Positions 398 to 62,844 of a stretch of DNA of 64,000 nucleotides are shown here, piece by piece. Origin of the DNA: an uncultured Acidobacteriota bacterium. GTDB lineage: Bacteria; Acidobacteriota; Terriglobia; 20CM-2-55-15. Each line of letters starts with the position of its first letter. The stretch's first letter is position 1. A model generated the notes under the pieces. It worked only from the letters and a program-made list of their open reading frames with translations. It was not told the origin of the DNA and searched no databases. Where the stretch lies: the NCBI GenBank assembly GCA_963738025.1, contig CAVTWA010000020.1, forward strand, positions 128,520 through 192,519, read 5' to 3'. The position numbers and the translations under genes are program-made.

Positions 398-2320
398 TTA
401 CTGTTTCTTCTTTTCGTCCGCGTCCACATATTCGGCGTCGATGACATCATCGGGCTTTTCTCCCGGCTTTGCCTCCGAACCGCCGCCCTGACCGTCCGTG
501 CCGCCCCCACCGCCGGCCTGCGGACCCGACTTATACATTGCTTCGGCAACTTTGTGCGACGCTTGCGTGAGCGCATCGGCCGCGCGGTTGATCGCGTCAA
601 CATCGCTGCCTTCCAAAGCCTTCTTCGTGTCGGCGATTGCAGCCTCCACGGATTTGGCATCGGAGTCGGACAGCTTGCTGCGGTGCTCGTTGAGCATCTT
701 CTCCGTCTGGTAGACCAGAGAATCCGCCCGGTTACGAGCTTCGATTTCCTCGCGCTTTCGCTTGTCTTCGTCCGCGTGCGATTCCGCCTCTCGAACCATC
801 TTATTAATGTCGTCCTTGTTCAGGCCACTGGACGAGGTGATGGTAATTTTCTGCTCTTTCCCGGTGCCCAGATCCTTGGCGGACACATTCACGATGCCAT
901 TGGCGTCGATGTCGAACGTCACCTCGATCTGCGGAACCCCGCGGGGAGCCGGCGGGATGCCGACCAGATGAAACTTTCCGAGAGTGCGATTGTCTCGCGC
1001 CATGGGACGCTCGCCTTGCAGAACATGGATTTCAACGGACGTCTGATTATCGGCAGCCGTCGAAAATGTCTCGCTCTTGCGCGTTGGAATCGTCGTGTTG
1101 CGCTCGATCAGTTTGGTGAACACGCCGCCCAAGGTTTCGATACCGAGCGACAATGGTGTCACGTCGAGCAGCAGAACGTCCTTCACTTCGCCGCCGAGGA
1201 CACCGGCCTGGACAGCAGCGCCAACCGCAACCACTTCATCCGGGTTCACGCCCTTATGAGGTTCCCTGCCAAACAGTTCACGCACAATCTGCTGAACTTT
1301 GGGAATACGCGTCGAACCGCCGACGAGTACGACTTCATCGATATCGCTCGGTTTGACGCCTGCGTCCGACAATGCCTGTTTGCAAGGCCCCATCGAGCGT
1401 TGCAGAATGTCATCAACGAGCGACTCAAACTTGGCACGCGTCAGTTTCAGATTCAGGTGTTTCGGGCCGGTCGCATCGGCGGTGACAAACGGAAGCGTTA
1501 TCTCCGTCTCCTGTACCGACGAGAGCTCCATCTTTGCTTTTTCAGCAGCTTCCTTCAGCCGCTGCAGGGCCATCTTGTCTTTAGAAAGGTCGATGCCCTG
1601 ATCCTTCCTGAACTCGTCGATGATCCAGTCGATGATCCGCTGGTCGAGGTTATCGCCCCCGAGGTGGGTATCGCCGTTGGTTGCTTTGACTTCAACCACT
1701 CCCTCTCCGACTTCCAGAATGGAAATATCGAAGGTGCCGCCACCGAAGTCGTAAACGGCAATGGTTTCGTCCTTTTTTTTATCCAGGCCGTACGCCAGCG
1801 CTGCCGCCGTCGGCTCATTGATGATACGAAGGACTTCCAGACCAGCGATCCGCCCGGCATCCTTTGTCGCCTGGCGCTGAGCGTCATTAAAATAGGCGGG
1901 GACGGTGATAACCGCCTTGTCCACCTTCTGTCCGAGATAGTCTTCTGCGGCGGATTTCAGCTTCTGAAGGATCATCGCGGAGATCTCCGGCGGCGAATAC
2001 TCCTTCCCCATGCTTTCAACGCGCGCGTCGCCGTTGGTCGAGCGAGTGACCTTGTAGGGCACCATCTTCATTTCTTCATTAACTTCGTCGTACCGGCGCC
2101 CCATAAATCGCTTGATCGAATAAATCGTATTCTCGGCATTGGTTACGGCCTGCCGCTTGGCAACCTGGCCCACCGGGCGCTCACCGCCTTTTGTGAAGGC
2201 GACCACCGACGGGGTCGTCCGGCCTCCTTCCTGATTCGCAATTACGACCGGCTCTCCACCCTCCATCACCGCCACGACGGAGTTCGTGGTCCCCAGGTCG
2301 ATTCCAATAATCTTGCTCAT
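398..2320 (-). CDS. dnaK: Molecular chaperone DnaK (Hsp70)
   Basis: 640-aa ORF with Hsp70 signatures: [40 protein letters not shown], and an acidic C-terminal tail. Confidence 0.98.
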
Positions 2321-2375
2321 TGTGCAGCCCTCCTACGGCCTACCACTGGCTGGAAATTTACGTATAACAGCCACC

Positions 2376-2404
2376 AATATAAGATCTGAGTCGATTATTG
2401 TCAA
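2376..2404 (-). promoter_or_regulatory. Sigma70-like promoter upstream of dnaK
   Basis: The minus strand reads TTGACA (2404-2399), a 17-nt spacer, then TATATT (2381-2376). This lies about 55 nt upstream of the dnaK start. Prediction from consensus only. Confidence 0.5.
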
Positions 2405-2467
2405 TATGACCTTATAGCAGGCTTATAAGATTTGGACGCACAGTCGCACGAAGCGGTGTCGGAATTA

Positions 2468-2550
2468 ATAAGCCGCGGATTAAACGGATGGGCGCATGAA
2501 TAGGATCCATGGATGCGCCCATCCGTAAAATCCGCTCAGTCCGTGGCTTA
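2468..2550. repeat. Palindromic REP-like element of the 'AAGCCRCGGAT...' family
   Basis: Perfect 14-bp stem acggatgggcgcat (2484-2497) / atgcgcccatccgt (2513-2526). Outer imperfect arms are taagccgcggatt / aatccgctcagtccgtggctta. Related to the elements at 39120-39179 and 58618-58669. Confidence 0.6.
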
Positions 2551-2609
2551 TCGAAACCGGCTCGGGCTAATAACTTCGAAGGGTTCTAAAAAGGGGTTCG
2601 ACTGGCTTG

Positions 2610-3323
2610 TTATTTGAGAAGTTCTGCGGAAACAGAGGGCTTTTCGGAGCCGTAAACGTGCTGCACCTTGGCGACGTAGTCTTCAGCAACCTGAGAGGCG
2701 TCGGGATTGTCGGGGCTCCAACCGTTATATCGCTTCACGCCTTCCCATAACCCGAACCGGTGTACGTAGTCTTTAAGGATCCGGACGCCGAAATCCACGT
2801 TGTCTTCAATCTTAAAAAGGTTGATCCCCTCCCGGTCGGCCTGCCGGCCCCAGGTAGGCAGGTGGATTTGCATGATTCCGATCGACTCGAGATTGGAAAT
2901 AGCAAACGGATTGGCCCGGCTCTCGACGATCATGATGCTGGCAATCAACCGGGCGTCGATATCGTATTTTCGCGCGGTCTCGGCGATGGCGCGTGCGACG
3001 CGTCCGCGATGGCTCTCATCAACGTCGTACTTCTTTAAAAAGTACTCGAGAGACGTCACTGCTGGATTTTCGGGGCTCGATGGAAGCGTCGCCGGCATCT
3101 GCAATCCGGCTTCTTCGACGGCCTGCACGGAACCAGATCTGGAGAACACGTACGCGCTCGGGGTTGGGAATCCAAGCACCATGACGGACAGCAGTATTGT
3201 TAATATCAATAACTTAGAAGACTTCGACAGCCACTCTTTACAGGTCAGATAATGCAGGATGTAACGACCATTCCAGCCCACCCTCATACCGCGACATCGA
3301 CTACAGAATGCAATAGGTTGCAC
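2610..3323 (-). CDS. Lytic transglycosylase (SLT domain), membrane-anchored
   Basis: 237-aa ORF with the SLT catalytic region IMIVESRANPFAISNLESIGIMQI and an N-terminal hydrophobic segment LLILTILLSVMVLGF. The exact start is uncertain. Confidence 0.85.
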   Translation of the reverse strand: MQPIAFCSRCRGMRVGWNGRYILHYLTCKEWLSKSSKLLILTILLSVMVLGFPTPSAYVFSRSGSVQAVEEAGLQMPATLPSSPENPAVTSLEYFLKKYDVDESHRGRVARAIAETARKYDIDARLIASIMIVESRANPFAISNLESIGIMQIHLPTWGRQADREGINLFKIEDNVDFGVRILKDYVHRFGLWEGVKRYNGWSPDNPDASQVAEDYVAKVQHVYGSEKPSVSAELLK

Positions 3324-3586
3324 TTTTCCTCCTTCCGGGGGAGTAACGAGCCTTTGCTATTTAAGATGACGTTCAGACGGGAAACAGAAATTCCAGAACC
3401 CGGGGCTCTTTTATGTCCGGCCCCTGCGAAAATGATCGCCGTCCTACGCATTCTTTGCAAGGAAAGACTGCCACCCCCGCTTGGCGGCCGAAAATGTTGT
3501 TGAGAGCAGCATGTCCTTCAAGTAAAATGGCTAGTTTACCTACCAGTGCTTTTAATGTTGTTTCAATAAGTTAGAGGGTCCGCGCC

Positions 3587-3916
3587 GTGACTGATCTCCT
3601 CCGGACTGGAATATTTTTTTTCAACGCCGGACGCTATTTCGAGGCCCATGAAGCGTGGGAAGATCTGTGGCGGCCAACCCGGGGACCGCTGCGGCTGTAC
3701 TACCAGGGTCTGGTTCAGGCTGCCGTCGGGATGCACCATCTGGGCCGCGGAAACCGCAATGGGGGTCAGGCACAGATCAACAAATCGATCGCCAAGCTCG
3801 AACAGTATCCTGCATCCTTTTGCCAGATCGACAATGCGAGGCTGGTCAAGGACCTGCGGCGGGTTCTGGAGGCGCCAGTACCGGCAGGGATCGAAATTCG
3901 ATGCATGGAGGGATGA
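3587..3916 (+). CDS. DUF309 domain protein
   Basis: 109 aa with a GTG start. FFFNAGRYFEAHEAWEDLWR...YQGLVQAAVGMHHLGRGN is the typical DUF309 pattern. Confidence 0.8.
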   Translation: MTDLLRTGIFFFNAGRYFEAHEAWEDLWRPTRGPLRLYYQGLVQAAVGMHHLGRGNRNGGQAQINKSIAKLEQYPASFCQIDNARLVKDLRRVLEAPVPAGIEIRCMEG

Positions 3917-4007
3917 CAATGATCCCTGGGTTATTGTCCTTGGGCTCTGCCCGGTTTGTTAACGCCTCCCGATAGGAAATAGGTGTGATACAGTCGGAGG
4001 GTTTTTT

Positions 4008-4094
4008 GGAGAGATGTCCGAGTGGTTTAAGGAGCACGCTTGGAAAGCGTGTGTGGGGGTAACTCCACCGTGGGTTCGAATCCCACTCTCTCCG
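4008..4094 (+). tRNA. tRNA-Ser (anticodon GGA)
   Basis: Hand-folded cloverleaf. Acceptor ggagaga/tctctcc plus discriminator g; anticodon stem cacgc/gcgtg with loop ttGGAaa; long variable arm; T-arm tgggttcgaatccca. CCA is not encoded. Confidence 0.95.
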
Positions 4095-4127
4095 TTTAAG
4101 CGGCTGTTGCCGCTTATCGAGCAGGCT

Positions 4128-4222
4128 TTGGGGGGCTGTGCAATTGGAGCTCGAAAACCCCGCCAGGTCCGGAAGGAAGCAACGGTATCGGGTAAACCAA
4201 TGTGACACAGTATCCCCCTTGG
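4128..4222 (+). ncRNA. ffs: Signal recognition particle RNA (small bacterial 4.5S type)
   Basis: Contains the conserved helix-8 core ccaggtccGGAAggaagcaacgg (E. coli 4.5S has CAGGUCCGGAAGGAAGCAGC). The terminal pairing ggggggctgtg / cacagtatccccc closes the hairpin. It lies immediately upstream of dnaX, as in Bacillus (scr-dnaX-yaaK-recR). Ends are approximate, +/-5 nt. Confidence 0.8.
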
Positions 4223-4279
4223 CCTGTCCGTAAGATTGTCCAGTTTCAGATTTCCCAATTTTGAATCTCCAATAAGAAT

Positions 4280-5908
4280 TTGAAGTATCAAGTTATCGCC
4301 AGGAAATTTCGTCCTCAGGTATTCGAGGACGTCGTCGGTCAGAAGCCAATCGTCCAGACATTGCAGAACGCCATCCAGATGGAGCGGATTGGCCATGCCT
4401 ATCTTTTCTCAGGCCCGCGAGGCGTCGGGAAAACAACTACGGCCCGCATCCTGGCGAAGGGCCTCAATTGCGAAAAAGGACCGACGATAACCCCTTGCAA
4501 CACGTGTCCGTCCTGCCAGGAGATTGCCTCCGGAAGGTCGATCGACGTATTTGAAATCGATGCTGCATCAAACACCGGTGTGGACAACATCCGGGAACTG
4601 CGCGAGAGTGCCAAATATGCTGCGGCACGGAGCCGCTACAAGATCTTCATCATCGATGAAGTTCACATGTTGTCGACCTCGGCATTCAACGCGCTCCTGA
4701 AGATTCTGGAAGAGCCACCTCCGCACGTCGTTTTCATTATGGCGACGACGGAGCGGCACAAAGTTCCCGCAACGATCCTTTCAAGATGCCAGCAGTTCAT
4801 TTTCAGAACAATTTCACCAGCTGAAATTCAGGCACACCTGCGCCAGATTGCGGACCGGGAAGGTATAAAAATCGACGATCGAGCGCTGAGTTATATCGTC
4901 AAAGCTTCCGAGGGGAGCATGCGCGACGCCCAGTCGCTCCTGGACCAGATCATTTCCTTCAGCGGACAGGACGTCGTCGACGAAGATGTCCGTGATGTCC
5001 TTGGATTCATCCCCAGCGAAATTCTGGATCGAACGAGCGAAGGTCTCGCCAATCGCGATTCCAGGGCTCTGCTGGAAAACATCGCTATCGTCGTTGACCA
5101 GGGTTTAAATCTGCAGCAGTTTGTCCGTGAGTTCATAGGCCGCGTCAGGGATTTGTTGATGATCAAGCTGGGGCTCGAAGACAAGGTCATCGGCGGAGCT
5201 GACGAGAGGCGGGCACTGAGCGAGCAGGCCAAAGCGTTTTCCGAACAGGACTTGATCCGTTTTTTTGACCTGTTGCTGCGCATCGAGAGTGAGCTTCGCT
5301 GGACCTCGCAGGCACGATTTCATCTGGAAGTCGGTTTTGTGAAACTGGCCAAGATCGGATATGTACGGGATATTGAAGATGTCCTGCGTGAAGTAAAAGG
5401 CGGGCAGCCCGCGACACCAATCGTCTCAGCCCCGCTGCCGCCGAGAAAGGCTGCACCGGCGCCGATTTCCAGGTCGGCCCAGCCGGAACCGCCGCCGATC
5501 CCGCATCCGATCTCCGAAAAGAAAATCCTCGCACCGCCTCCATCCGAAATAAATTCCGAAGCGTCGTCCTTTTCCGACACGTTTACCGGCAGCGTGGAGG
5601 ACAAATCCGGCATCACTGCTGTACATCTGCAAAAAGCCGAACGAATTGAACGGAACGGCGATGCGATCCGCGTGGTTATGTCGAACCAAACGGCGCTGGC
5701 GATGTTGCAATCGAAAGAACACAAAACGGTTCTCGACTCGGTCGCAAGTGATCTCGTTGGTAAAGCCGTTTCCGTGTCTCTTATAATGAAAGAGGATCAG
5801 CAAAAAGCACCTGCCGCGGAGCGTGCCAAAGAAGAACCCTTGGTCCAACAATTTTTGCGGGTCTTCAAGGGCGATCTTGCGCAAGTGAAACCGTCGAAAG
5901 AGGAATAA
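4280..5908 (+). CDS. dnaX: DNA polymerase III subunit gamma/tau
   Basis: 542 aa with a TTG start. Motifs: [13 protein letters not shown], Walker [10 protein letters not shown], zinc module [10 protein letters not shown], box [10 protein letters not shown], followed by a Pro-rich linker. Confidence 0.95.
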
Positions 5909-5910
5909 TC

Positions 5911-6210
5911 ATGAATTTGCAGCAGATGATGAAGCAAGCTCAACAAATGCAGGAGAAGCTGCAGAAACAAATGGAAACCACCGTCGTTGATGCAACGGCA
6001 GGGGGCGGCATGGTGTCTGTCAAAATGAACGGGCAAAAACAACTGCTGTCGATACAAATCGAACCGGAAGTTTTCAGCAGCGGCGACAAAGACATGCTGC
6101 AGGATTTGATCGTCGCAGCCGTCAACGAAGGTATCCGTAAAGTGGACGACATTATGCAGAATCAACTTGGAGGCCTCACAGGCGGCCTCAAGATTCCCGG
6201 TCTGTTCTGA
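5911..6210 (+). CDS. ybaB: Nucleoid-associated protein YbaB/EbfC
   Basis: 99 aa, [19 protein letters not shown]...[11 protein letters not shown]...IPGLF. Conserved position between dnaX and recR. Confidence 0.93.
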
Positions 6211-6213
6211 GAA

Positions 6214-6810
6214 ATGGACGTCGCAGAACCCGTCCATCGGCTAGTCGAACAGTTCAAGAAGCTTCCCGGCATCGGGACGAAATCGGCCCAGCGTCTGGCA
6301 TTTTTTATTTTGAAAATGGATCAAACCGATGCAACAGAGCTTGCAGAGTCTATTCTGGAAGTAAAGCGATCCATCCGGCGCTGTTCGGTCTGTAATAACC
6401 TCACCGATGTTGATCCCTGCCAATTCTGTACGCACCCGTCGCGTTCCGACCAGATGCTCTGTGTGGTTGAAGAATCGAACAACATTCTACCCGTCGAAAA
6501 GACGCATGAGTTCAAGGGGCGTTATCACGTCTTGATGGGTTCTATATCTCCCCTCAAAGGGGTCAGCCCGGATCAGCTTGCGATCGCATCATTGCTCAAA
6601 AGGCTGCAGGCGGGAAAGATTGAAGAAGTAATTGTGGCCACGAACCCGAATGTGGAAGGTGAGACAACCGCCATGTATCTCTCCCGTTTAATTAAACCCC
6701 TCGGAATTCGCGTCACACGACTCGCACTCGGCCTGCCTGTTGGTGGTGATCTAGAGTACGCGGACGAAGTAACGATGGCGAAAGCGCTTCAGGGCCGCCG
6801 GGAACTGTAG
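6214..6810 (+). CDS. recR: Recombination protein RecR
   Basis: 198 aa. HhH motif LPGIGTKSAQRLAF, C4 zinc finger CSVCNNLTDVDPCQFC, and a Toprim region. Confidence 0.95.
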   Translation: MDVAEPVHRLVEQFKKLPGIGTKSAQRLAFFILKMDQTDATELAESILEVKRSIRRCSVCNNLTDVDPCQFCTHPSRSDQMLCVVEESNNILPVEKTHEFKGRYHVLMGSISPLKGVSPDQLAIASLLKRLQAGKIEEVIVATNPNVEGETTAMYLSRLIKPLGIRVTRLALGLPVGGDLEYADEVTMAKALQGRREL

Positions 6811-6814
6811 TTGC

Positions 6815-6838
6815 AGGCGCGGTCTATAGACCGCGCCT
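6815..6838. repeat. Perfect 24-bp palindrome (REP family TTGTAGGCGCGGTCTATrACCGCGCCTACAA); likely bidirectional terminator
   Basis: aggcgcggtcta|tagaccgcgcct lies between convergent recR (stop 6810) and the MFS gene. The MFS stop codon (6837-6839) lies inside the palindrome. Confidence 0.7.
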
Positions 6839-47702: not shown

Positions 47703-48007
47703 GTAGGCGCGGTCTATGACCAGCTTGTCCAAGACAGAATGGACGCGGAGCCGCAAAGTAAGTGGATGCGATGTACACCTGGTTTGGCATTCCCCGCCTA
47801 AGTTAGGCGGGGTGCCTTCGCGCAGCGAAGGCGGGGCGGTCTGTTCAAAGATCGCGCGGAGCGCGCACCTTATAAATGGCCGCGAAGCGCTCCTTATCAA
47901 TCGGTGCGCTTCGCGAGGGCATCCCCGCCTTACTAAGGCGGGGACTGGCAGACACCAACCGCGGCATCCATTCTTGCTTTGGACAGCTCTGGTCTATGAC
48001 CGCGCGC
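47703..48007. mobile_element. Composite palindromic element: REP half-sites plus about 27-bp inverted flanks, enclosing a second MITE-like element
   Basis: Left end: gtaggcgcggtctatgacc-agcttgtccaagacagaatggacgcgg (47703-47748). Right end: ccgcggcatccattcttgctttggacagct-ctggtctatgaccgcgcgc (47959-48007). These are inverted copies of each other. Element B (47790-47944) lies between them. Confidence 0.6.
47790..47944. mobile_element. MITE-like palindromic element, copy B (155 bp), opposite orientation to copy A
   Basis: tccccgcctaagttaggcggggtgccttcgcgcagcgaaggcggggcggtctgttcaaag...tccccgccttactaaggcgggga. It is near-identical over its first ~115 nt to the reverse complement of 23856-24061. 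Confidence 0.7.
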
Positions 48008-48027
48008 TTTATCTGGAATCAACGAAA

Positions 48028-48052
48028 TAGGCGCAGTCATAGACCGCGTCTA
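48028..48052. repeat. Imperfect copy of the GGCGCGGTCTAT palindrome family
   Basis: taggcgcagtcatagaccgcgtcta. The holA stop codon (48050-48052) lies inside it. Confidence 0.5.
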
Positions 48053-56613: not shown

Positions 56614-56686
56614 GCCGGCGTAGCTCAGTTGGTAGAGCAGCTGATTCGTAATCAGCAGGTCAGCGGTTCAAGTCCGCTCGCCGGCT
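56614..56686 (+). tRNA. tRNA-Thr (anticodon CGT)
   Basis: Hand-folded cloverleaf. Acceptor gccggcg/cgccggc plus t; D-arm gctcagttggtagagc; anticodon stem gctga/tcagc with loop ttCGTaa; T-arm agcggttcaagtccgct. Confidence 0.95.
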
Positions 56687-56895
56687 CTTTCATAATAAAC
56701 GACTTAGCCCCAGTGATAAGCCGGGGCTAAGTTCACACTGTGCCGGATTCTGTACCGGGTCGGCCACGTTGACCGATCCCCTATCCCACCAGTTGCAGCG
56801 CCTCGGGTGCCTCGAGGATTGCGGCCACCTCGTCCTCTTTCGCTGCACGCGCGGCTTCCTCCGCCTGGTTGCCGCGAAGACTGTGGATTTCGGCC

Positions 56896-56937
56896 AAAAA
56901 AACGGAGAACAATTTCTTGAATTAGAAATTGTTCTCC
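56896..56937 (-). terminator. Rho-independent terminator of the FN3-protein operon
   Basis: On the minus strand: ggagaacaatttc-taattcaa-gaaattgttctcc followed by gTTTTTTT. It starts 11 nt after the stop at 56948. Confidence 0.8.
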
Positions 56938-56947
56938 CCGTGTCCCG

Positions 56948-57589
56948 CTAGATCGCCATTCGTGTTGCGGAGGCGCTCCAGTCGGTCCAGCCCGCCTTGC
57001 CGAAGGCACGAACCTGAAATGCATAAGTTGTGCCCGGCGTGAGGCCGGTGACGGTTAGCGGTTTCCTGGCGATGGCCAGCGTTGCCGTGGTCCATGTGCC
57101 AGGGAGTCCGTTGATCACCGGGGCCCAGTGCACTTCATAATTGTGTGCACCTTGAATCGGTGAAACGGACACGTTGAATTGGCCGGTAACCCCCTGCTCG
57201 ATCTCCGGCGCTCCCGGCGTGGGCAGCGGTTGCGGTTCCGAGCGGACACGTGGCGGCAGCGGGATGAATCCGCTGGACGTCAGTACCGCCGGATCGCCGT
57301 TCGCTACCTTGAGAGCGTAGGAGCCGAGCAGATCGAGGTCGTGCTCGAGCGTCAGACGGTCCTTTTCGCGCTGGGCAATCTCCTTCGGGCCGCCCTCTTT
57401 CGAGGCGGCGTTGGAGCTTGCCAGGTTGTCGGCATCTTGCTTGAGCGTGGCGAGTGGAATGGGCGGCGTCGTGAATATGTTAACGTTGGCACCCATGTCC
57501 GTGAATACCGTGTGTGAGCGCGACAAAAGATCGTCGAGCTTTGCACGCCGGAAGTTGCGTCGAATGTTCAATTTTTGGGTCGTAGTCAT
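56948..57589 (-). CDS. Protein with a C-terminal fibronectin type III domain; N-terminal half unknown
   Basis: 213 aa. The FN3 pattern is FNVSVSPIQGAHNYEVHWAP...LTVTGLTPGTTYAFQVRAFGKAGWTDWS. Confidence 0.75.
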   Translation of the reverse strand: MTTTQKLNIRRNFRRAKLDDLLSRSHTVFTDMGANVNIFTTPPIPLATLKQDADNLASSNAASKEGGPKEIAQREKDRLTLEHDLDLLGSYALKVANGDPAVLTSSGFIPLPPRVRSEPQPLPTPGAPEIEQGVTGQFNVSVSPIQGAHNYEVHWAPVINGLPGTWTTATLAIARKPLTVTGLTPGTTYAFQVRAFGKAGWTDWSASATRMAI

Positions 57590-57771
57590 TTGGTTTTCCT
57601 TCGATTATTGGTTAACGGTGAGTGGCTCAAAGTTTCGACAATGCTGGAGATCCGGACCTGAGCCTTCCCCGAATCCTCCAAACTTGCCAGGCGTCGTATA
57701 AATGTGAGCGGTGCGCCGAGCGTTGTCTCAAATACCGAACTTGATTTTTCCATCAACATGCTCATGATCAT
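57586..57771 (-). CDS. Small hypothetical protein (61 aa), translationally coupled to the FN3 gene
   Basis: Its stop overlaps the downstream start (ATGA at 57586-57589). No recognisable motif, so coding status is uncertain. Confidence 0.4.
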   Translation of the reverse strand: MIMSMLMEKSSSVFETTLGAPLTFIRRLASLEDSGKAQVRISSIVETLSHSPLTNNRRKTK

Positions 57772-57940
57772 TTCCTTTCAACTCCATCGTTGGCCTCTTT
57801 TTTTGGCCCATACTTATATAAATCCCCGCAAAACGGAAAGTGACTGAAACATTTTTTAAGTTGCTGAATGCGAGCGACTTAGTGCGACGCAAAAACTATC
57901 GTGTTGCGGCCCAAACCAGTTTTTTGCAAATCGGCAGGTG

Positions 57941-58420
57941 GTCGATCGTGACGAACACGTGTCGATCGCGACGAACACGTGTCGATCGCGACGAACACGT
58001 GTCGATCGCGACGAACACGTGTCGATCGCGACGAACACGTGTCGATTGCGACGAACACGTGTCGATCGTGACGAACACGTGTCGATCGTGACGAACACGT
58101 GTCGATCGTGACGAACAGGTGTCGATCGCGACGAACACGTGTCGATCGCGACGAACACGTGTCGATCGCGACGAACACGTGTCGATCGCGACGAACACGT
58201 GTCGATCGCGACGAACACGTGTCGATCGCGACGAACACGTGTCGATCGTGACGAACACGTGTCGATCGCGACGAACACGTGTCGATCGTGACGAACACGT
58301 GTCGATCGTGACGAACACGTGTCGATCGTGACGAACACGTGTCGATCGCGACGAACACGTGTCGATCGTGACGAACGCGTGTCGATCGTGACGAACGCGT
58401 GTCGATCGCGACGAACAGGT
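57941..58420. repeat. Tandem array of 24 head-to-tail copies of a 20-bp unit (consensus GTCGATCGCGACGAACACGT)
   Basis: Read directly from the sequence: exactly phased, no spacers. Position 9 is C in 14 units and T in 10. There are only five other substitutions: unit 6 c7t; units 9 and 24 c18g; units 22 and 23 a17g. Confidence 0.97.
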
Positions 58421-58421
58421 T

Positions 58422-58604
58422 AGCGTGACTGCCCTCAGCCAGACATTGCAACTCGGTATTCCCAGGGTCCTTCTCGCCAGAGTCGCGAGCGACTCTTACG
58501 ACGTCACTTCAGATGGCCAACGGTTCGTTGTGTTGTCAAACGTGGACAATGAGCCCTTAATGCCGATTCATATCGTCGTCAATTGGGCCAGCGAAAGATA
58601 CTGA
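58422..58604 (+). pseudogene. C-terminal remnant of a TolB-like beta-propeller repeat protein
   Basis: Own translation gives ...LARVASDSYDVTSDGQRFVVLSNVDNEPLMPIHIVVNWASERY*. The frame runs straight out of the tandem array with no start codon or upstream body. Confidence 0.6.
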
Positions 58605-58617
58605 AGAAGGATGGATA

Positions 58618-58669
58618 AGCCACGGATTTGAACGGATTGAAATCCGCTGAATCCGTTCAATCCGTGGCT
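58618..58669. repeat. REP-like hairpin of the 'AGCCACGGATTTGAACGGATT' family
   Basis: agccacggatttgaacggatt pairs with aatccgttcaatccgtggct (1-nt bulge, 11-nt loop). Related to 2468-2550 and 39120-39179. Confidence 0.65.
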
Positions 58670-58721
58670 CATTACGTCGATCGCGAGTGTAGTCCAAGAA
58701 TTAAATGGACATTCCGTCACT

Positions 58722-58748
58722 GTAGGCGCGCTCTATGAGCGCGGATAG
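58722..58748. repeat. Divergent copy of the GTAGGCGCGGTCTATGACCGCGC family
   Basis: gtaggcgcgctctatgagcgcggatag, with the small hairpin gcgcgctc-tat-gagcgcgg. Confidence 0.4.
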
Positions 58749-59228
58749 TCGGAATAAGCGGCCGTGGCGAGTTGCTCCCGGACGCGGGAGGGCGCCGAGG
58801 TCTCATAACCGTGCATTATGTGACTCACGATGGGGCGAAATGGAGCCCTTTGGGCTGTCGGGCGGCAGAAATGAGCCGGGGCGCGGTGGAAATTAGCCGA
58901 GGGCAAATCAGAGCAAAAGCAACAACAACTGCGAGTCTGTTTCTAAACATAACGCCCTTCGCGCTAGCAGATCGTTAGCTCAACAGGGGCCGGTACTGCG
59001 GCTTGCCGGGTTGTTCGTGCCGTCCCGTAGAAAAAGACGCAATTGCCCCGAAACAACCCGCTTGAATGGGAGATCATGTCGACAATTCGCAAGCCCTGCG
59101 CCCTTCACTGGAAAGCTATTGCTTTTCTCTTCCACCCCGCGCACTTCGGCGTCAGAATCTCAAGGCGAAGAGCCGGTGTGCGTGCCTGCCAAAGTGGCGC
59201 TGCGCGGCAAACCGCAGCAGCAGGGACA

Positions 59229-59597
59229 ATGGCGAAGACGACCGTACCGTATTGGAATGCACTCAATCCGAGCAGCAAGCACAGGTGGAAACCGATCCAG
59301 GGTTTGGAAGGTATCGCCGAGGAACTTACGTTGAGCATCGACGTGGGTACAGGCGAATACACGCGCTTAACGAGATTCAATCCCGGTGCGGATACTAGCG
59401 CGTTCGGCAGTAAGAGTCACGACTACCCCGAAGAAGTCTTTATAGTGACCGGGCGACTTTATGACCAGGCGTTTAACATGTGGCTGGAGACCGGACACTA
59501 TTGCAGCAGGCCACCCGGAGAGGTTCATGGCCCTTTCCGAACCGATATCGGTTGTGTGGTTCTCGAAGTGTCGTTCCCAAATAGACATCGCTTATGA
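59229..59597 (+). CDS. Cupin-domain protein (ChrR-like cupin)
   Basis: Start MAKTTVPYWN... after AGGGA. The beta-barrel pattern is ...YTRLTRFNPGADTSAFGSKSHDYPEEVFIVTGRLYD...GHYCSRPPGEVHGPF. The track ORF begins at 59043. Its stop overlaps the next gene's start. Confidence 0.75.
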   Translation: MAKTTVPYWNALNPSSKHRWKPIQGLEGIAEELTLSIDVGTGEYTRLTRFNPGADTSAFGSKSHDYPEEVFIVTGRLYDQAFNMWLETGHYCSRPPGEVHGPFRTDIGCVVLEVSFPNRHRL

Positions 59598-60763
59598 AAG
59601 GTCAGAGATCCCAGGGCATTTTGACAACGCATGTCGGCAGTCTTCCCCGCCCCAAGGATCTTCTCGATCTCATGAAAGCCAAAGTGACGGGCACTCCTCC
59701 CGACGCACAGCTGTACGAAGGTAAGCTTCGGAGCGCAGTCGTCGAATGTGTTTCCAGGCAGGCCGAAACCGGAATCGATGTCCTGAACGATGGCGAGCAA
59801 TCGAAGCCTGGCTTCTTTACCTATATTCGCGAGCGATTGGAAGGCTTCGAACCCCGGCCGCAGCGGCCGACGCAAGCTTGGCCACTCGAAGTGAACGCAT
59901 TCCCGGAATACTACGAACAGTATTTCAAGGAGGCCATGGGCGGCGGCGCCGTCGCGCCGATCGTTCCGATGGTCTGTACGGGACCAATCCGGTATTGTGG
60001 CGCCGAACCGCTCAACCGTGACATCGAAAACCTCAAAGCGGCCGCTTCCCCGGTTAAAGCTCATGCCGCATTCATGTCGTCGATAGCGCCCAGCGGCACG
60101 GGAGCCAACGACTACTACCGTACCGAAGAAGAGTTCTTTCATGCTGCCGGCGCGGCGCTTCGCACGGAATATCATGCAATCATTGAAGCAGGCTTCCTGC
60201 TCCAGATTGACGATCCTTTCCTCACGGACATCTTTGCAGATCCTGCGTGTGATGCTTCCGGCCGGCATAGACGTGCCTCCATGTTCGTCGAAGCAATCAA
60301 TGAAAGTCTGCGCGGGATTCCAGAAGAAAAGATTCGCTTTCATACCTGTTACGGTATTAACGAGGGACCGCGGATCTACGACGCGCCTCTCGATCAGATT
60401 GTGCCCTACATGCTGAAGATTCATGCCGGCGCATACAGCTTCGAGGCAGCAAACCCGCGGACGAACACGAATATCATCTGTGGGAACGCGTGAAGCTTCC
60501 GGAGGGCAAAATCCTCATTCCCGGTGTGATTACGCACGCCAGCAACATCGTTGAGCATCCGGAACTGATTGCCGAACGCCTTGTCCGGTTTGCGAAACTC
60601 GTTGGCCGTGAAAATGTGATCGCCGGAGCAGACTGCGGGTTTTCGTCACAGGCAACATACCGTCCGGAAGTTCATCCGACTGTCGTCTGGGCAAAGTTCG
60701 GCCTTACGGGACGGAGCCCGGCTGGCAAGCAAGCACCTGTGGTCTTCGGGTACGGCGTTCTAA
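59594..60763 (+). pseudogene. Cobalamin-independent methionine synthase-like (MetE C-terminal domain / UROD-like family) protein, two frameshifts as sequenced
   Basis: Begins GILTTHVGSLPRPKDLL...DVLNDGEQSKPGFFTYIRERL...HTCYGINEGP...FEAANPR. The frame changes at about 60460. It continues (H)EHEYHLWERVKLPEGKILIPGVITHASNIVEHPELIAERLVRFAKLVGRENVIAGADCGF...VVWAKF. The frame changes again at about 60700, then ALRDGARLASKHLWSSGTAF* (stop at 60761-60763). Confidence 0.8.
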
Positions 60764-60765
60764 GA

Positions 60766-61032
60766 TATTCCGACTGGAACGGTTGTTCATCCGGAGGCAA
60801 GCAGGGATTGAAGGAGGCGCAGGGCTTCCCAAATGACTTCGACGGCATTGTCGCCGGCGCTCCCGCAGCATACGGGACGCATCTGACCGCGTCTGCGGCG
60901 TGGATTGGACAGGCGGTAAACCGCACCGAGTCCAGTTATATTCCTTCCACAGAGTTTTCGCTGATTCCGGGTGTGTATCAGGTCGTTCAATCGTTCGCGG
61001 ATCCTACCGGAGGAAAATGGCAGATCACTTAA
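60766..61032 (+). pseudogene. Internal fragment of a tannase/feruloyl esterase family gene
   Basis: YSDWNGCSSGGKQGLKEAQGFPNDFDGIVAGAPAAYGTHL...YIPSTEF is paralogous to [32 protein letters not shown]... of the intact gene at 31834-33360. There is no N-terminal or C-terminal body. Similarity fades after about 60970. Confidence 0.65.
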
Positions 61033-61052
61033 CAAGGCTGCATTGAACCGAA

Positions 61053-61287
61053 ATGCCGTCGGATGGGCGCGAGCTATATCACCTGGCCCTCGATGGGAAA
61101 TTGATGGCTGTCTCGCGCCAGTGGCTCTATTCGACACTCCACTCACCTTTCAGCGAGGGCAACTCCCAAGAACGCATCGTTACGATGTCGCACCGGTTGG
61201 GCGATTTCTGCTCGCGGTCCCGAAAGCAACTCTGCAGCTCCTCCGATCGTCGCCGTGATGAATTGGACAGCCGGCCTCGAAAAGAAA
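61053..61287 (+). pseudogene. C-terminal remnant of a second TolB-like repeat protein, spread over three frames
   Basis: First frame: SDGRELYHLALDGKLMAV. Second frame: ALFDTPLTFQRGQLPRTHRYDVAPVGRFLLAVP. Third frame: PIVAVMNWTAGLEKK. This is the same C-terminal architecture as the fragment at 58422-58604. Confidence 0.55.
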
Positions 61288-61413
61288 CATGAAGGTAGCC
61301 GTAGGCATTTTCGTGCCTTGTTCTCCCCAGGAGACGCATCCTGTCCGCCCCAGCTCCTTTTTTTCCAGCGAGTTAGGTGGTATTGTACGCGACCACGGTT
61401 GTTTGGAGGGCAA

Positions 61414-62133
61414 GTGCGTAAGCCATCACGACTTCTATACACTCTGGCGGTCTTCCTAACGAGCTTTTATGCGATATGGTGCGGGCGTGGCGTGGAACCA
61501 ACAGCCGCCTTGTTTGCGGCGACTACACAGCAACAGCAACAGGCGCAGACCAGGCCCGTTATTTCAGATCCGCAAGAAGCGTTGGAGGCGTTGCTCGCCG
61601 GCATTCGGAGGTTCGACAAGTTGCCAGCTTATCGGGAACGAGTCAAAAGTATCCGGGAGGATGCAGAGTGGCTGCGAAAATCCCGCCGGAATTGGCCATC
61701 AGCAAATTACAGCGGGTTTACATTAGATATTCAATTGGACCTGGATCTCCTCAATGCACTCACAACACGAGACAGCTCCGATCTGGAACAGATGCGGATC
61801 GTTGCGCAAGATCTCAACATCAAGCGGCGCCAGTGCCGCCAACTCGGTGGACCGCACACGGTGAGCGTCAGTGTGAGCACCAAGGACAAATCAGACCATG
61901 AAGTTGGTGGATTCGAGGTGTGGTTCGTTAAAAAGGGATTCGAGAAGCAACAACAATATTATCGATCGTTTCCAACATACAGCAGCCCTGCTCGTCGGGA
62001 TTTTCCCGATGCAGGTTACTATGTGCTCTGGGCAGCCCACCCCGGCGAACCCTCTAAAACTGGGTTCAAGAAAGATGTCGAAGTTGGCCCGGGAGCCCAG
62101 GTATTGATCGATCTCACCCCACCTTTGTTCTAG
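61414..62133 (+). CDS. Hypothetical secreted or anchored protein
   Basis: Proposed GTG start (61414) follows GGAGGG, giving VRKPSRLLYTLAVFLTSFYAIWCG. A Gln run, a helical region and a beta-rich C-terminus follow. The track ORF (from 61255) begins inside the upstream gene remnant. Confidence 0.55.
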   Translation: MRKPSRLLYTLAVFLTSFYAIWCGRGVEPTAALFAATTQQQQQAQTRPVISDPQEALEALLAGIRRFDKLPAYRERVKSIREDAEWLRKSRRNWPSANYSGFTLDIQLDLDLLNALTTRDSSDLEQMRIVAQDLNIKRRQCRQLGGPHTVSVSVSTKDKSDHEVGGFEVWFVKKGFEKQQQYYRSFPTYSSPARRDFPDAGYYVLWAAHPGEPSKTGFKKDVEVGPGAQVLIDLTPPLF

Positions 62134-62135
62134 TT

Positions 62136-62690
62136 ATGTTGTGGTTCCGCAAACTACAAACTGAAGTTGGCCAGATCTCGGCAGCACTAATGACGACCAT
62201 TGGTGGCTTTCTGATACCTCCCCCGATAGGCTTTCTCAGCACCGACGTTCAGATGTGGCCGAAAGTCGGAGGGTACGTCATTGGCATTATCACAACTTTG
62301 CTCATCGTCATTGGCCAGAACACAAAGCAGCGCCGGTTCACAAAGACATGGTTTGCAACGACTGTGATTGCACTCCTGCTCGCAATCATGGCATTTTTTG
62401 GCTACCGATACGTCACGAGTACCCGCACATGCGCCTATTATGACCAATGGAAGATCATAGGATCCGAGTTGTCCGCCGACGCAATCGATTATGAACGCGA
62501 TCACCCGCGTGCCAGTTGTGAAGAATTGCTGAAAGCGTTTACGGGCGACGTCAAGGAGATTTGGAGCGAAACCTCGCTTCGAGGCTCAGAATTTCTATTG
62601 AGTATCACCTATCTTTCCGTTCTTCCACTGCTAACCGTCGCATCAATCGCAAGCTTGCAGGCCTATCGATGCAGCCGGAACCGACGATAG
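62136..62690 (+). CDS. Hypothetical membrane protein (3-4 TM segments)
   Basis: 184 aa, starting 3 nt after the previous stop. Hydrophobic segments: IGGFLIPPPIGFL, VGGYVIGIITTLLIVIG, FATTVIALLLAIMAFFGY and LLSITYLSVLPLLTVASIASL. Confidence 0.6.
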   Translation: MLWFRKLQTEVGQISAALMTTIGGFLIPPPIGFLSTDVQMWPKVGGYVIGIITTLLIVIGQNTKQRRFTKTWFATTVIALLLAIMAFFGYRYVTSTRTCAYYDQWKIIGSELSADAIDYERDHPRASCEELLKAFTGDVKEIWSETSLRGSEFLLSITYLSVLPLLTVASIASLQAYRCSRNRR

Positions 62691-62844
62691 CAAATATTTA
62701 CCGGTGGACAAAGTGGTTGCATACGTTACCGGTGCTGCACTAGCTGCTTTGTATCAAGTAATGCCAGTGTGGGCGCCATTTTGAGAGGAGACAAAGTCCT
62801 CGGTGGCCTCTTCCCCTGCTTGTATAGTGACCTGGGGAGGGACT

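Follow-up and report, generated by a model that had tools for sequence, protein, structure and literature searches.

The locus described here raises the question of what a long, uninterrupted tandem array is doing beside a gene for a small FN3 protein. The window, by which we mean the whole 64,000-nucleotide stretch of DNA that was analysed, contains 24 head-to-tail 20-bp units at 57941–58420, with no strand assigned; the unit is GTCGATCGCGACGAACACGT, or ACGTGTTCGTCGCGATCGAC when read along the direction of the FN3 gene (minus strand). TRF detects a single array (57941–58417, period 20, 23.9 copies, 96% matches, 0 indels, score 856), and a pattern search for GTCGATCGCGACGAACACGT with up to 2 mismatches gave 24 in-register matches spanning 57941–58420 and 0 matches in shuffled sequences. 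An earlier, sequence-only reading had described such a phased 24 × 20-bp array, with C at unit position 9 in 14 of the 24 units and T in 10, and with GATC in 23 of the 24; these counts are borne out, GATC lying inside CGATCG. Rarer variants are 7T (one unit), 17G (two units) and 18G (two units). The symmetry had been claimed too broadly: the palindrome expected at every unit junction, ACACGTGT, is intact at 20 of the 23 junctions inside the array, and the dyad ascribed to every unit, GTCGATCGCGAC, is exact in 13 of 24, the T variant breaking the GTCG/CGAC dyad. The periodic dyad match of the array is 0.70, at a period of 20 bp. The position-9 C/T variation falls in CGATCG/TCGCGA-type motifs; part of it could be base-calling error if the assemblies are long-read, as we presume from their contig names. 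GATC is not avoided in the window, with 448 sites observed against 243 expected.

The array is real, and it is neither an assembly artefact, a CRISPR nor coding sequence. Like CRISPR arrays, it is a long run of short, partly palindromic direct repeats with a conserved leader adjoining; unlike them, the arrays described here have a period of 20–41 bp, there are zero spacers (24 contiguous units fill exactly 480 bp, as had been recognized from the sequence), and no cas genes were seen among the flanking ORFs, the recurrent neighbours or the PADLOC results, so that a CRISPR was rejected. The earlier argument against coding was correct in its conclusion but insufficient in its reasoning. T-variant units do create TGA on the plus strand, as direct reading confirms, but plus-strand stops alone do not exclude coding because a 190-aa ORF (57879–58451) on the minus strand reads through the entire array. 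The conclusion holds on other grounds, and a minus-strand coding repeat was rejected: a search of 5.8 billion proteins found no homologue of the array ORF, its Pfam hits are sub-threshold and arise through repetitive composition, and related arrays can be partly inverted and have periods of 20 or 41 bp, which are not multiples of 3. Long perfect arrays are prone to mis-assembly, but this one was found in five other independent assemblies (L045, L079, L080, L081 and L172), so that six now carry it with 22–31 units or interrupted by an IS, and arrays of relatives are also present in short-read assemblies. The credence left for an artefact or a coding repeat is close to nil.

Comparison with the other copies places the array at the distal end of a 1.58-kb cassette (56870–58448) whose order on the minus strand is a 28-bp flank, the array, a promoter-like leader, a conserved 5′UTR, the gene for a 213-aa protein and a terminator. 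The distal flank (58421–58448, minus strand, reverse complement CAATGTCTGGCTGAGGGCAGTCACGCTA) forms the outer boundary, since homology with L079/L080 runs 28 bp past the array and ends there. The leader (57772–57940, minus strand), situated between array and transcribed region, is ~94% identical in an orphan copy (L045 3808–4000 vs window 57747–57940). It contains a promoter-like element, motif B (CACTTTCC-N16-TATATAAGTATGGGCC, 57805–57842, minus strand), that an alignment of leaders shows to be common to distant homologues and that a strict regular expression finds at 11 further loci; it fits neither the sigma70 nor the sigma54 consensus. The promoter is located between array and gene, and arrays lie just distal to promoters. 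On the proximal side, a terminator scan places a hairpin followed by a T run, resembling a terminator, 3′ of the FN3 gene (56904–56937, minus strand; kept in L079/L080), and the cassette ends with 56870–56903 (minus strand), homology with the second locus ceasing at ~56870 by alignment and blastn. A tRNA-Thr(CGU) gene identified by ARAGORN and Rfam (56614–56687, plus strand) lies 182 bp from this end. It is an integration hot spot in the population, L172 having a 1.49-kb insertion there whose far side repeats window 56644–56688. Inspection of the cassette-end alignments by eye revealed no target-site duplication or terminal inverted repeats. Pfam assigns DUF6599, Cupin_7 and Meth_synt_2 to flanking ORFs, and the cassette itself encodes the FN3 protein only.

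The stretch between leader and gene had been interpreted as a small ORF forming an operon with the FN3 gene, but it is probably a single gene with a conserved 5′UTR. The putative 5′UTR (57590–57804, minus strand, with a start of transcription predicted near 57800–57808) has a conserved core at 57610–57685, including CCGTTAACC, in an alignment of the window with L082. The two cores are ~92% identical but differ by a 1-nt indel and a 13-nt insertion, and no counterpart of the 61-aa ORF (57586–57771, minus strand), which is probably no gene, exists in L082; the FN3 coding sequences are 89.7% identical, with 84.6% identity at third codon positions. The distance of 170 bp given for the array was correct as measured to the ATG of the 61-aa ORF (57771), although that ORF is itself probably not a gene. 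On the other side, the array had been said to abut the remnant of a TolB-like gene. The junction is instead the cassette boundary, 28 bp beyond the array edge. Across it lies a 59-aa ORF (58425–58604, plus strand) that is probably the C-terminal remnant of an older gene; its sole homologue is a 70-aa ORF, it is frameshifted in L081, and it has no match in Pfam, NCBIfam or PDB even at E ≤10, PD40/TolB profiles included. Neither these collections nor a homology search upheld the TolB-like label.

The gene itself (56948–57589, minus strand) encodes a 213-aa protein with an N-terminal helical bundle (residues 18–105) and a C-terminal FN3 domain. Assignment of the latter is secure: Pfam fn3 (PF00041) scores 35.8 bits against a cut-off of 25 (E 9.8e-9), and the AlphaFold2 model (mean pLDDT 91) has a seven-strand sandwich of FN3 fold at residues 125–213. 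Foldseek matched only the FN3 domain (E ~1e-6); for the N-terminal domain its best E was 0.37, and NCBIfam and a PDB profile search gave no match. Pfam, NCBIfam, PDB profiles and Foldseek yielded no recognized function for the protein, which is basic, with a pI of 9.3 (family median 9.5). A search for the protein family gave 56 hits. Relatives of the N-terminal domain were found neither in phages and plasmids (tblastn) nor in IMG/VR, PHROGs matches were limited to the FN3 domain, and PADLOC on two cassette proteins gave nothing meaningful, with no Cas protein and no defence family; a phage, plasmid or defence origin was rejected.

The other copies show that the cassette moves and that the array changes much faster than its flanks, in both copy number and variant order. 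An identical FN3 protein is encoded on 3 further contigs. L079/L080 have window 56870–58448 at 97.8–98.1% identity, with 30 units, at a second locus that is unrelated and has unrelated genes on either side, so that the cassette has been copied to at least two loci; L045 is a third locus, an orphan consisting of leader and array only, with 31 units. At the orthologous locus, where the window has 24 units, L081 (98.5% identity) has 21.9 and L172 has 4.4 and then IS3 genes; orthologous arrays also differ in their patterns of unit variants. The array is therefore polymorphic in copy number at one locus and behaves as a VNTR, as had been anticipated. The remainder of the IS-interrupted array was not recovered in L172, whose contig ends 2.3 kb on among mobile-element genes. 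Searching 185,579 genomes for a single unit returned 77 isolated, scattered hits and just one genuine array, that of L045; searches of JGI metagenomes and IMG/VR with two units found no match. The statement that no described element has this unit holds, with L045 the only other array in genome, metagenome and viral collections; full-text literature searches on tandem arrays, Acidobacteria, sigma54 and FN3 turned up nothing relevant. A ParA-like CbiA gene lies 6 kb from the L079/L080 copies and is not recurrent. The context of L173 consists of chromosomal housekeeping genes (alanyl-tRNA synthetase, ribosomal protein S20 and DNA polymerase III delta).

We compared 92 loci encoding homologues of the FN3 protein (32–93% protein identity), a set whose members are not independent and often lie on short contigs. 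A tandem array is present within 1.6 kb upstream of the gene in 42 of the 92, 12 of these arrays beginning at a contig end; among loci with 800 bp or more of upstream sequence, only about 10–11 lack one, and in L086/L087 only a decayed 82-bp periodicity is left. Array periods are 20, 40, 41 (23 loci), 42, 60, 82, 120 and 123/124 bp, nearly all multiples of ~20.5 bp. Control sequence contains ~12 arrays per 590 kb, none with a period of 40–42 bp or more than 7 copies, and the difference in period class between family and control arrays is significant (Fisher p = 2e-8). A 41-bp period corresponds to ~10.25 bp per turn, a value like that of DNA wound around a protein core. The unit sequences fall into 26–28 families that are unrelated to one another, and we found no k-mer common to them beyond chance and no conserved site distal to the arrays. 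Dyad symmetry exceeds z = 2 in 17 of 28 unit families. Part of the L156 array runs in the opposite orientation to that of L140, a close relative; orientation is thus not fixed, which fits a function at the DNA level.

Among the neighbours recurring at 47 loci, the FN3-family gene is the sole gene that always adjoins arrays, and the association of the array with this gene, proposed earlier, is borne out by the comparison. L107 is a decayed orphan array without the gene. No second family gene was found inside the fetched loci. Promoters differ within the family. A sigma54-like -24/-12 element on the gene strand occurs in 24 of 84 relatives scanned (0 on the opposite strand), preceded by paired palindromes that the array units do not resemble. 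In L141, a truncated gene copy is followed by an array, palindromes, a -24/-12 element, a Shine-Dalgarno site and an ATG at the contig end. The window leader (57590–57940) has no match to TGGCAC-N5-TTGC at up to 2 mismatches, and a sigma54 promoter was rejected for the window gene. FHA-domain sigma54 activator genes adjoin the family gene at 5 loci and ECF sigma genes at 4.

On this comparative evidence, we would put at about evens the proposition that the array is a cis-acting, helically phased protein-loading control region that tunes the FN3 gene. It would be a cis element that is conserved yet evolves fast, making up the distal portion of the control region upstream of genes for ~213-aa proteins with a helical bundle and an FN3 domain in Terriglobia. 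Its units, about two helical turns in length (20 bp here, usually 40–41 bp as two half-units in relatives), are predicted to be phased sites at which many copies of a candidate dimeric DNA-binding protein load along a single face of the helix; alternatively, the DNA may wrap around the bound protein. The nucleoprotein block would raise or silence transcription of the FN3 gene, and slippage or unequal exchange, by altering the number of sites, would shift the set-point. Of the protein-loading, iteron or centromere role envisaged from the sequence, phased loading survives as the best reading, given the period class, the dyad symmetry and the recurrence in 26–28 unrelated families. Its other part does not: no replication or partition gene lies nearby, and the array is therefore not an iteron origin or a classical centromere. 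Points that weigh against the preferred reading are the lack of a shared k-mer and of a distal conserved site, the IS3 insertion tolerated in L172, the orphan arrays L045 and L107, and the loci without arrays.

Some of these same points favour a neutral minisatellite, in which a slippage-prone palindromic operator or other sequence beside this gene family expands and is homogenized by unequal exchange with no function of its own. Fast turnover of copy number and variants, the tolerated IS insertion, decayed (L086, L107) and orphan (L045) arrays, ~10 loci without any array and the lack of a sequence motif common to the units would all be expected. Yet neutral expansion offers no reason for a whole-helical-turn period or for specificity to one gene family, and it must contend with 26–28 unrelated unit families at the same position, periods limited to multiples of ~20.5 bp where control arrays differ, and excess dyad symmetry. 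Pure slippage, one of the roles originally suggested, is unlikely to be a full explanation, since homologous genes whose units are unrelated have this architecture upstream, and we regard the neutral account as unlikely, if still worth taking seriously. A more doubtful proposal is that the FN3 protein binds the array next to its own gene, much as SopB binds sopC or ParR binds parC, polymerizing on or wrapping 20–30 phased dyad sites into a locus-specific chromatin- or centromere-like body, or serving autoregulation. Such a two-part module of sites and binder, of a kind not recognized before, might respond to sigma54/FHA or ECF signalling; unit sequence and protein would evolve in step, and the module would spread through the genome as a 1.6-kb cassette. 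The FN3-family gene is indeed the only constant neighbour of the arrays and travels with its array as one cassette, the family is basic, the units are locus-specific as co-evolution would predict, and the 20/41-bp periods recall pSK41 parC (4 × 20 bp) and F sopC (12 × 43 bp, with an inverted repeat per unit bound by SopB). Against it, the protein shows no recognized DNA-binding fold (best Foldseek E 0.37; empty PDB profile search), the cassette holds no partner NTPase, some arrays are orphans without the gene, and co-variation of unit and protein is equally expected from co-inheritance.

Two further proposals carry much less weight. An array acting as RNA, whether as a hairpin train, a decoy, a scaffold or a source of processed small RNAs, would make use of dyad units that could form a hairpin every 20–41 nt and of an array able to self-fold, and in L082 the array lies only ~50 bp from the conserved 5′UTR. 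We consider this improbable: recognizable promoters lie downstream of the arrays, the L156 array is partly inverted, a helical-turn period would be meaningless for RNA, the single-strand fold is no better than that of shuffled sequences (z -0.86), and no Rfam family reaches its gathering threshold in or near the array. E-value mode in Rfam yields only miRNA models far below threshold, owing to hairpin potential, and a known RNA family was rejected. A lineage-specific epigenetic switch based on Dam or CGATCG methylation, in the manner of pap or agn43 phase variation, had also been suggested and is highly improbable. GATC within CGATCG is nearly universal in the window units and GATC is not avoided, but GATC is present in only 9 of 26 unit families, so that methylation is not a family property and cannot explain the conserved architecture; nor was a methyltransferase or an Lrp/OxyR-type partner seen near the cassette.

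Known systems resemble the array in part. Plasmid centromeres, which also include R1 parC (10 × 11 bp around the parMR promoter), share head-to-tail units of ~2 or 4 helical turns with a dyad site in each, and a position adjoining the gene served (upstream in parC); many dimers load cooperatively on the centromeres to build a single superstructure, as might happen here. Unlike them, the present arrays are chromosomal, reach 31 units and are tied to FN3 genes with sigma54-type or other promoters, and no ParA, ParM or TubZ NTPase or recognized centromere-binding protein, and hence no partition operon, is encoded in the cassette or by the neighbours that recur at 47 loci. Plasmid iterons (7 × 22 bp in R6K, 19 bp in P1 and F) are likewise direct repeats of ~20–22 bp with two-helical-turn phasing and multi-site loading, and serve also as regulatory "handcuffing" sites; here, in contrast, units are contiguous without spacing, no rep gene is adjacent, the N-terminal domain has no plasmid or phage relative, and the context is chromosomal rather than that of an extrachromosomal or integrated replicon. 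Promoter VNTRs, for example the TTTTGAT heptads that ToxR binds ahead of ctxAB or the TAAA tract ahead of nadA, also vary in unit number between strains upstream of a promoter, and thereby alter regulator binding and expression. Theirs are few units of 4–7 bp at one gene in one species, whereas here units of 20–41 bp, up to ~30 in number, keep their architecture across a divergent family while their sequence is not kept. Sigma54 promoters have upstream activating sequences bound by enhancer-binding proteins such as NtrC, known enhancers comprising 2–5 sites. The arrays of the 24 sigma54-type relatives lie directly distal to the paired palindromes and -24/-12 element, with FHA activators at the 5 loci noted above, but their units differ from those palindromes, and the window leader has no -24/-12 element. 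Mycobacterium MIRU-VNTRs, finally, are intergenic tandem units of tens of bp with strain-variable copy number; MIRUs scatter copies of a few sequence families over many unrelated loci, whereas in the present case every locus has a unit of its own, and what the loci have in common is the gene family beside the array and the period.

The pattern in soil Terriglobia, phased dyad arrays upstream of the promoters of one small FN3-gene family, is apparently undescribed. The usual picture of a bacterial promoter has a handful of operator sites controlling it; here there are 10 to 30 phased dyad sites, which change completely in sequence but keep their period and symmetry. If functional, the arrays would represent a satellite-like, copy-number-tunable control element in bacteria. 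The comparison also draws attention to the conserved 5′UTR and to motif B, a promoter motif of no assigned class. The arrays explain the very short contigs on which these genes are found in short-read assemblies, and long-read metagenomes resolve such elements, on which short reads break. The family is abundant in soil Acidobacteriota, one metagenome scan having confirmed at least 408 relatives in its first 600 candidate stretches.

The array at 57941-58420 consists of 24 head-to-tail copies of GTCGATCGCGACGAACACGT with zero indels and zero spacers. TRF reported a period of 20, 23.9 copies, 96% matches and a score of 856, and in a pattern search all 24 units matched the consensus at ≤2 mismatches, with no matches in shuffles. 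The 24 × 20-bp array described in the sequence-only reading is thus real, with minor corrections. At unit position 9, 14 units have C and 10 have T, as had been counted; other variants are 7T (one unit), 17G (two) and 18G (two). Position 9 lies within CGATCG/TCGCGA-type motifs, and since the contig names suggest long-read assemblies, some C/T calls there could be base-calling errors. Dyad symmetry is less uniform than claimed: the 8-bp palindrome ACACGTGT, said to form at each junction, is perfect at 20 of 23, and the 12-mer GTCGATCGCGAC, assigned to every unit, is exact in 13 of 24. Neither spacers nor cas genes are present, in agreement with the earlier rejection of a CRISPR. The conclusion that the array is non-coding holds, but the argument from TGA stops on the plus strand was incomplete, since the minus strand is open from end to end. 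A search of 5.8 billion proteins found no homologue of the resulting 190-aa ORF; this, together with the 20- and 41-bp periods of related arrays, rules out a coding repeat. An assembly artefact is excluded by six independent assemblies. We therefore give artefact and coding repeat together next to no weight.

The product of the adjoining FN3 gene (56948-57589, minus strand) is basic (pI 9.3) and combines an N-terminal helical bundle (residues 18–105) with a C-terminal FN3 domain (AlphaFold2 mean pLDDT 91). Foldseek matched only the FN3 domain of the whole model and found nothing better than E 0.37 for the N-terminal domain alone. No functional match was found in PHROGs, NCBIfam or PADLOC, and no relatives in phage, plasmid or IMG/VR collections. 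A 61-aa ORF (57586-57771, minus strand), which shares an ATGA overlap with the FN3 start codon, had been read as part of a small-ORF/FN3 operon. Comparison with L082, the closest relative carrying a different array (FN3 proteins 85% identical), speaks against that operon: the ORF has no counterpart there and is not conserved as a protein. The 57610-57685 core aligns to L082 at ~92% DNA identity, interrupted by a 1-nt indel and by an insertion of 13 nt, whereas the CDS reaches 89.7% and third codon positions 84.6%. From this alignment we read the region as a conserved 5′UTR. Its conservation equals or exceeds that of the coding sequence in this comparison. The putative 5′UTR contains a CCGTTAACC motif in the window (57610-57685, minus strand) and in the leaders of L082, L124, L140, L143 and L167; many relatives have a CCGCGGG...CCCGCAAA hairpin directly before a strong Shine-Dalgarno site, and no Rfam family matched. 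On the far side of the array, a 59-aa ORF (58425-58604) is frameshifted in L081 and looks like a gene remnant; no tool supports its earlier identification as TolB-like.

Contigs encoding exactly the 213-aa FN3 protein were looked up, yielding three from ENA (L079, L080 and L081). L081 carries the orthologue of the window's locus, 98.5% identical over window 56684-62706, but with 21.9 units. L079 and L080 represent a different locus, flanked on one side by PEMT/beta-lactamase-fold genes and on the other by a PAS-histidine kinase, and contain window 56870-58448 at 97.8–98.1% identity with 30 units. These alignments place the distal boundary of the cassette at 58448, 28 bp past the array, and the proximal boundary at 56870, ~78 bp downstream of the FN3 stop and just beyond the terminator hairpin; inspected by eye, they showed no target-site duplication or terminal inverted repeat at the ends. 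The window's locus recurs in L172/L173 (99.1–99.5% identity), from a sample shared with L080. In L172 the array ends after 4.4 units, where IS3-family transposase genes start, and the contig stops 2.3 kb further on. The suggested copy-number variability is therefore confirmed (24, 21.9 and 4.4 units, the last interrupted by IS3), and since orthologous arrays differ in both the number and the order of unit variants, the array evolves far faster than its flanks. The IS3 genes (HTH_Tnp_1, HTH_21; L172 8221-9016, L173 14271-16469) start within the array and are followed by a reverse-transcriptase gene (RVT_N/RVT_1), after which the 100.8-kb contig ends. Scanning one genome per species with a single unit returned 77 isolated, scattered matches and one true array, in the Terriglobia MAG contig L045: 31 units behind a 194-bp leader ~94% identical to window 57747-57940, with otherwise unrelated flanks. 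This orphan leader and array copy (L045 3808-4618) lacks the FN3 gene; its homology to the window extends 25 nt into the "61-aa ORF" and no further, G occupies position 9 in the first units, and several units contain indels.

Very probably the window array is not a one-off but a member of a conserved, copy-number-variable architecture tied to the FN3 gene family and placed at the distal edge of the promoter region. Family members are ~210–216 aa long, and their hosts are Terriglobia wherever the source names an organism. A first homologue search gave 56 matches (32–93% identity), a profile search many full-length 50%-identity clusters, and examining the first 600 candidate stretches from JGI metagenomes confirmed 408 relatives. 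When 92 family loci were fetched and run through TRF (score ≥100, period ≥18, ≤1.6 kb upstream of the gene), 42 had an upstream tandem array, 12 of which start at a contig end, as fits assemblies breaking on repeats. Only 11 array-less loci have ≥800 bp of upstream sequence; one locus, represented by two contigs (L086/L087), retains an 82-bp periodicity. Identical criteria applied to 590 kb of unrelated loci gave ~12 arrays, none with a 40–42-bp period or >7 copies (binomial p ~1e-37 for the enrichment, the loci not being independent). Best-scoring periods in the 42 loci are strongly restricted: 41 bp in 23 loci, 20 bp in six, 82 bp, 120 bp and 123 or 124 bp in three each, 40 bp in two, and 42 and 60 bp in one each. 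These are multiples of ~20.5 bp (Fisher p = 2e-8 versus control arrays), and in many 40/41-mers a pair of half-units that have diverged can be seen. By sequence, the units sort into 28 families unrelated to one another, with significant periodic dyad symmetry (z > 2) in 17 (mean 2.25). Two families, with periods of 24 and 45 bp, look unrelated to this pattern and were left out of motif counts; among the remaining 26, no k-mer recurs more often than chance would give. Units resemble one another where the loci are related, as in the window (ACGTGTTCGTCGCGATCGAC) and L082 (GAGTTCGTTGCGATGGACTC, embedded in a 60-bp higher-order repeat). Compared with L140, its 86%-identical relative, L156 has part of the array inverted, and array orientation is therefore not constrained.

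Comparison of printed leaders revealed two types. Type 1 (sigma54) has the order array, two copies of a ~21-bp palindrome (for example TTTCAGAAAAATCTGAAA), ~100-bp spacer, -24/-12 element (TGGCACAGCAGTTGC in L083), 5′UTR, strong Shine-Dalgarno site and ATG. Searched with a relaxed -24/-12 pattern, 24 of 84 loci matched on the gene strand and none on the other, and FHA-domain sigma54 activator genes neighbour five loci. In L141 the series of array, palindromes, -24/-12 element, Shine-Dalgarno site and ATG follows straight after a truncated family gene. Type 2, which includes the window, has the conserved motif C(A/G)CTTT(T/C)C-N15-17-T(T/G)TA.A.AGT(A/G)TGGGGC and then a short GGCC...GGCC hairpin; ECF sigma genes neighbour four loci (for example L086, L148 and L165). 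In the window this promoter-like motif, CACTTTTC-N15-17-TTTACACAGTATGGGGC, lies at 57805-57842 (minus strand), and no -24/-12 element was found in the leader. The motif fits the consensus of neither sigma70 nor sigma54 and marks one leader subgroup (the window, L121, L124, L140, L149, L156, L159 and L160). No conserved element was found distal to the arrays. Besides L045, L107 contains an orphan array, degenerate and ~700 bp long: a 20-bp-period repeat (..TTGTCTCGC-N4-GAWTCC.., ~1150-1840) between the 3′ ends of two convergent genes, one of the FN3 family and one for a Crp/Fnr-like regulator, which looks like a decaying or orphan array.

The interpretation given in the sequence-only reading is supported in part. 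What distinguishes the element is that it is family-wide, with a constrained period and free sequence. We put at about even the chance that the array acts at the DNA level as phased binding sites for a dimeric protein, which would load on one DNA face or wrap the DNA, the loaded array modulating the adjacent promoter. This reading fits because the period is a whole number of turns, the units are dyad-symmetric, orientation is free and the arrays lie upstream of promoters, features to which coding, RNA-level function and purely neutral slippage are a poor fit. At 41 bp, the commonest period corresponds to four turns of 10.25 bp, nearer to protein-wrapped DNA than to free B-DNA, though this is suggestive only. 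A neutral satellite hitch-hiking on a slippage-prone operator is the foremost competitor, though unlikely, followed at slightly lower weight by a centromere- or chromatin-like module in which the FN3 protein binds its own array. A transcribed hairpin RNA is improbable, and a GATC-methylation switch more so, GATC occurring in just 9 of 26 unit families. How unit number relates to expression, and which protein binds, are both open to direct testing.

Among known systems, those nearest in function are centromere arrays, plasmid iterons, promoter VNTRs (such as the ToxR heptads) and sigma54 enhancers. F sopC has 12 × 43 bp with inverted repeats, pSK41 parC has 4 × 20 bp, and R1 parC surrounds a promoter. 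Unlike centromere arrays, the element comes with no NTPase or centromere-binding gene; it also differs from iterons (no rep gene), CRISPRs (no spacers or cas genes) and sigma54 enhancers (no -24/-12 element in the window). Generic VNTR or minisatellite is the only label under which it falls outright, and we file it as a variant of multi-site regulatory or loading arrays. Full-text searching of one literature library turned up no description of this architecture.

Several further features were seen near the array and in other loci. Five near-matches to the unit 12-mer lie outside the array in the whole window (1.4 expected), including isolated copies at 58482-58493 (minus strand, GTCGCTCGCGAC) and 58676-58687 (plus strand, GTCGATCGCGAG), <270 bp to its right. 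Directly after the gene remnant is a long, nearly perfect inverted repeat (58618-58669, AGCCACGGATTTGAACGGATT ... AATCCGTTCAATCCGTGGCT), inside which the short-read contig L171 starts. L082, a 29.6-kb soil contig, alone among the loci carries a phage-type single-subunit RNA polymerase gene (1901-4294, minus strand; Pfam RPOL_N + RNA_pol), divergent from the FN3 gene across the array. At the position of window 56688, L172 has a 1.49-kb insertion (5347-6838) adjoining tRNA-Thr at its 3′ end; beyond the insertion, alignment to the window picks up again at 56644, so that 56644-56688 appears repeated at the far side. The insertion, which includes a 130-aa ORF and a 15-bp × 12.5 tandem repeat (TGCCGCCGCTCACAC), resembles a small integrative element. 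Finally, window 47990-48052 and L045 3334-3396 share 63 bp at 89% identity in otherwise unrelated loci, a stretch that is possibly a small repeat dispersed through these genomes.
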